The notes under the pieces are model-generated. The model did no database searches, had not been told where the DNA came from, and worked only from the letters and a program-made list of their open reading frames with translations. Below are positions 54,951 through 54,998 of a DNA stretch of 64,000 nucleotides, piece after piece. This DNA comes from Escherichia coli (GTDB lineage: Bacteria; Pseudomonadota; Gammaproteobacteria; Enterobacterales; Enterobacteriaceae): NCBI RefSeq assembly GCF_003018235.1, contig NZ_CP027437.1. One strand, 5' to 3'. Within the stretch, counting starts at the first letter, position 1. Every line of letters starts with the position of its first letter. The position numbers were made by a program, and so were the translations under genes.

Positions 54951-54998
54951 TCAGGGGAAGGTAAAAAAGAATGCGAAGAAAAACGGTGTGTGTTTCAT
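54951..54998 (-). CDS. pheL: pheA leader peptide PheL (15 aa, 7 Phe codons): [15 protein letters not shown]
   Basis: Small ORF read by hand on minus strand; placed relative to overlapping track ORF 54865..55080. Confidence 0.9.
   Translation of the reverse strand: [15 protein letters not shown]

Follow-up and report, generated by a model that had tools for sequence, protein, structure and literature searches.

The question raised by this locus is whether the short phenylalanine-rich ORF upstream of pheA in this Escherichia coli strain, in which an earlier note read a threonine at codon 4 where it gave isoleucine for K-12, represents a departure from the normal E. coli phenylalanine leader and, if so, whether the regulation of pheA is touched by it. 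In the 64,000-nucleotide stretch of DNA that was analysed (hereafter the window) this ORF occupies positions 54951-54998 of the minus strand, stop codon included, its coding sequence being the reverse complement of these positions, ATGAAACACACACCGTTTTTCTTCGCATTCTTTTTTACCTTCCCCTGA. Its translation yields 15 codons followed by TGA, with seven of the codons specifying phenylalanine in the arrangement FFF-A-FFF-T-F, and its coding strand closes with ACC TTC CCC TGA, i.e. the UUC_CCC_UGA ending of the pheL group that bears this name. A search with the Rfam Phe_leader model RF01859 recovered the region 54874-54999 on the same strand over the entire length of the model (positions 1-125 of 125) with 132.2 bits and E = 1.4e-25, against a gathering score of 55, and identical 48-nt matches in RefSeq genomes are annotated as pheL (WP_001386991.1). 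The definition of pheL used in PMC3082878 calls for a short ORF immediately preceding pheA in which five or more Phe codons are in frame and two or more of these are neighbours; the ORF in the window lies just 5' of pheA and carries such codons. The full-length match to the Phe_leader model, together with a pheA/tyrA/aroF setting like that of K-12, shows that the ORF did not arise by chance; it is unquestionably pheL. As developed below, we consider it about 95% probable that the locus is an ordinary E. coli pheL-pheA transcription attenuator with the commonest pheL allele of the species, and that the codon-4 difference is neutral or nearly so.

The genomic context of this ORF is conventional. 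The gene under leader control, pheA, which encodes the 386-residue chorismate mutase/prephenate dehydratase, was recognized in the ORF list at 53692-54852 on the minus strand and by synteny with the K-12 and O157 annotations; pheL lies upstream of it, with 98 nt between the leader ORF and the pheA ATG. On the far side of pheA are tyrA and the gene aroF, which are convergent with it, in the same arrangement as in K-12. The Phe leader RNA spans 54874-54999 (minus strand) and, as judged from the Rfam match and the MFE fold, comprises the leader ORF, the 1:2 pairing, small internal hairpins and the 3:4 terminator. The last of these was detected by the terminator scan at 54880-54904 on the minus strand as a hairpin of ten pairs, seven of them G-C, followed by a T-run (TTTTTAT); the same helix is found in the MFE fold and in the Rfam consensus, and thus a terminator is present between the leader ORF and pheA. 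Upstream of the leader TTGACA, the -35 element from which pheL-pheA is transcribed, can be read at 55048-55053 of the minus strand and is identical to that of K-12, while TACTGT at 55024-55029 on that strand, separated from it by an 18-bp spacer, is the probable -10 element. This pairing of hexamers is likely, to judge from their spacing, and it was not picked up by a strict consensus promoter scan. One untranslated, promoter-proximal base, at window position 55020, is G here and A in both K-12 and O157; it is located between the likely -10 and the Shine-Dalgarno region, near the expected transcription start, and the exact 64-nt haplotype with this G occurs in 685 of 5417 genomes.

To the alignment of the window with the genomes of K-12 MG1655 and O157:H7, covering the span from the raiA terminator to the start of pheA, we owe the precise definition of the difference. 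Codon 4 of the window pheL is ACA (Thr), at 54987-54989, and codon 4 of the MG1655 gene (b2598, NP_417089.1, NC_000913.3 2737599-2737646) is ATA (Ile). The polymorphic site is the second base of the codon, nucleotide 11 of the coding sequence, at window position 54988 of the minus strand, where the coding strand has C here (plus-strand G) and T in K-12. The contrast drawn in the earlier note is thereby borne out, K-12 having isoleucine rather than a shared threonine, and the seven Phe control codons that it described as intact are indeed identical to those of K-12 in the alignment. From the -35 element to the pheA start the window and K-12 differ in just two bases, namely 54988 and 55020.

To place the codon-4 difference in the species as a whole, a set of 5,426 complete E. 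coli genomes was searched for exact 48-nt matches, which were found in 5414. The Thr4 allele of the window was recovered as an exact 48-mer in 3564 of these 5414 genomes (~66%) and the Ile4 allele of K-12 in 1392 (~26%), while a third allele, T13I, which combines Thr4 with Ile13 through a change of ACC to ATC at codon 13 (WP_001700969.1), accounts for a further 428 (~8%); the remaining ~30 genomes have none of these three alleles. Thr4 is carried by, among others, O157:H7 and the ST131-type strain MNCRE44. That the codon-4 difference might stem from faulty sequencing or assembly was considered and rejected as vanishingly unlikely, the same 48-mer being present in 3564 independent complete genomes in which it is annotated as PheL WP_001386991.1. 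The Thr4 peptide is a named RefSeq protein, and two of every three complete E. coli genomes carry it. Beyond E. coli, threonine occupies codon 4 in all four of the other Escherichia returned by a species scan, with codons 3-4 reading CAT ACT in E. albertii, CAA ACG in both E. whittamii and Escherichia sp. E1V33, and CAC ACA in Escherichia sp. MOD1-EC7003. Because Thr4 predominates in E. coli and is also found in these four other Escherichia species, it is by parsimony most likely the ancestral Escherichia form, with the Ile4 (ATA) of K-12 most likely a derived minority allele that arose by a single C-to-T transition in the lineage containing K-12; this polarity rests on the four Escherichia species and the E. 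coli frequencies, the scan having returned no representative of E. coli, E. fergusonii or Salmonella. The earlier note had presented the window as the variant and as a minor strain marker: the difference is real, but its direction was mistaken, since the allele of the window is that of the E. coli majority.

The same species scan speaks to the degree of constraint on this part of the leader. It used a degenerate pattern, with one genome per species, in which codons 3-4 were left free and an 11-residue protein sequence was required, and it consequently samples that pheL group alone; as the amino acids of codons 5-15 are set by the pattern, what is informative in its output is the conservation of synonymous sites and the freedom of codons 3-4. 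Among the 112 Enterobacterales species returned, codon 4 is represented by 21 different codons for eight amino acids (L 33, T 26, V 26, F 10, I 9, Q 6, H 1, S 1) and codon 3 by 22 codons. In codons 7 and 10-14 the synonymous positions on which the pattern set no condition show no variation across these 112 species, 110 of which have CCG as codon 5. The invariance of the synonymous sites in codons 7 and 10-14 is consistent with a constraint from RNA structure rather than from the peptide. In four Kosakonia/Enterobacter-like loci CCC AAT stands in place of CCC TGA, such that the ORF is longer there. Gurvich et al. (2011) likewise noted that in the enterobacterial pheL group variation spares only the AUG, UUC_CCC_UGA and the regulatory Phe codons (PMC3082878).

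The predicted structure of the leader RNA points in the same direction. Model positions 1-15 of the Rfam consensus have no pairing partner, and the polymorphic base falls at about position 12, within a weakly conserved (lower-case) stretch. Folding of the 147-nt leader with ViennaRNA gave an MFE of -51.7 kcal/mol and the same structure for both alleles, the leader fold having z = -4.75 against shuffles, and in this fold pairing of the leader starts 4 nt 3' of the SNP at 54988. The pairing probability of the SNP base itself is 0.03 with C and 0.14 with U. A constrained fold for the stalled ribosome, in which the mask was over-long (through codon 12 plus 12 nt), retained the terminator, was alike for the two alleles and contained no classical antiterminator. 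The base altered in the T13I allele is, unlike the variable codon-4 site, in a paired part of the leader, and codon 13 is ACC in all 112 species scanned; on a reading of the MFE fold a C-G pair would become U-G through its C-to-U change. This allele was seen in the related E. coli genomes at L119:151-198 and L120:151-198.

How the leader works has been established in K-12: when charged tRNA-Phe is low the ribosome stalls at the Phe codons and blocks the 1:2 pairing, upon which the 2:3 antiterminator forms, the 3:4 terminator fails to form and transcription continues into pheA. Every sequence element on which this mechanism depends, the antiterminator region included, is unchanged from K-12 in the window. 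Here a ribosome translating the 15-codon leader would be expected to stall at its seven Phe codons under a shortage of charged tRNA-Phe, and such a stall would favour the antiterminator over the terminator hairpin at 54880-54904 and permit read-through into pheA. Codon 4 would stay outside the sensing step, and because it lies 5' of both the first Phe codon and the first paired base its identity is predicted to be irrelevant to sensing.

One way in which codon 4 might nonetheless be functional is through the speed at which it is translated. E. coli seldom uses AUA, which is decoded by a minor tRNA, and a small kinetic effect early in leader translation is possible; the coupling of leader translation to polymerase pausing being part of the attenuation model, a rare AUA might alter how soon, with respect to the paused polymerase, the first ribosome arrives at the Phe codons and so shift the basal read-through into pheA. 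The slightly higher pairing probability of the U allele noted above would also lean this way. As against this, codons 3-4 vary freely across the 112 species, both alleles are abundant in E. coli and their MFE structures are identical, and no sign of selection at codon 4 emerged in any of the results, which makes this explanation very unlikely. The more specific proposition, that in the K-12-like quarter of E. coli the leading ribosome is slowed by AUA, which gives these lineages a basal pheA set-point unlike that of the Thr4 majority, we hold to be most unlikely.

Another conceivable role for the residue at codon 4 is in the +1 frameshifting of pheL, for which the stimulator is mainly the encoded peptide, with the Pro codon at -10 (codon 5, adjoining codon 4) having a 2-fold effect (PMC3082878). 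However, nascent-peptide stimulation at CCC_UGA needs only the three preceding codons: constructs in which three wild-type codons precede CCC_UGA and the sequence upstream is out of frame display wild-type frameshifting, and pheA expression in Salmonella is not influenced by frameshifting (PMC3082878). That Thr4 versus Ile4 bears on frameshifting is accordingly extremely unlikely. We return, then, to the Thr4/Ile4 difference as a lineage marker that is very probably neutral or nearly neutral. The expectation of the earlier note that regulation should be unaffected fits everything computed here, namely the unchanged regulatory elements, the unpaired polymorphic base and the equal MFE of the two alleles, and an absence of effect on regulation is suggested jointly by position, predicted structure and natural variation.

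The phenylalanine attenuator of this strain can thus be regarded as intact, its type being the one most often found in E. coli. The lesson that it offers is one of reference bias: departures from K-12 at codon 4 are not to be taken as mutations. With three forms, the pheL allele is usable only as a coarse lineage marker, in which Thr4 signifies "not the K-12-like lineage".

A separate peculiarity of the window is a prophage whose near end is ~10-20 bp upstream of TTGACA (55048-55053), the pheA -35 hexamer, and which extends from 55062 to 64000 and beyond. In the alignment the homology to K-12 ends within the raiA/RaiZ terminator hairpin at 55062-55075. The first genes of the prophage are a tyrosine integrase with Int_N and Phage_integrase domains (55164-56168, minus strand), an HTH repressor-like gene (56244-56651, minus strand) and, divergent from the latter, a Cox-family gene (56654-57127, plus strand), which together constitute a P2-type lysogeny switch. 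The nearest complete genome is that of the O158:H23 strain CFIAFB20140388 (NZ_CP076709.1), which has 100% identity across the 1.6-kb switch region, and its element, ~45 kb in size and ending beside raiA, has a gpA-like replication endonuclease alongside lambdoid genes for Q, lysis, head and tail. The integrase is found in only 5 of the 5,426 complete E. coli genomes, and it adjoins pheL in all three of the carrier genomes whose context was inspected. Comparison of the 9 kb of prophage in the window with a collection of sequenced phages returned short mosaic modules only, with at most 10% covered and no named relative, and a search of the literature for prophage integration at raiA/pheL found nothing relevant.

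Comparison of the junctions (loci L118 ~11240-11270 and L001 ~5545-5565) identified the attachment core with the raiA terminator hairpin, which in the window reads GCACC TTCG GGCGC at 55062-55075 on the minus strand. The corresponding attB is GCGCC-TTCG-GGCGC, and we infer attP to be GCACC-TTCG-GGTGC, in which the attB hairpin is retained through a compensating A-T pair. The crossover falls within CCTTCGGG (55065-55072), and as a result the hybrid hairpin on the pheL side, in the window, has an A.C mismatch; this hairpin was not called at 55062-55075 by the terminator scan. At the raiA-side junction of the CFIAFB20140388 relative a G.U-containing hairpin is kept and the U-tract is lost (GCGTTAAAATTAG). 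These junctions could affect the formation of the raiA/RaiZ 3' end and the read-through from int toward the pheL promoter.

Set against the known systems, the attenuator of the window is closely matched throughout. The pheL of K-12 MG1655 is identical to it in 47 of 48 nt, with codon 4 being ATA (Ile) there and ACA (Thr) in the window, and shares with it the length, position, promoter, Shine-Dalgarno region, seven Phe codons, UUC_CCC_UGA ending, attenuator and pheA; the alignment shows no difference between the two in the 1:2 pairing or in the terminator hairpin. PheL WP_001386991.1, as encoded for example by E. coli O157:H7 PV15-279, has 100% nucleotide identity to the window across the 48-nt ORF, and the leader of the O157 genome differs from that of the window in one base downstream of the ORF (alignment column 275). 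Finally, the window matches the enterobacterial pheL group defined by RF01859 and UUC_CCC_UGA over its full length and in all consensus helices, with no significant difference.
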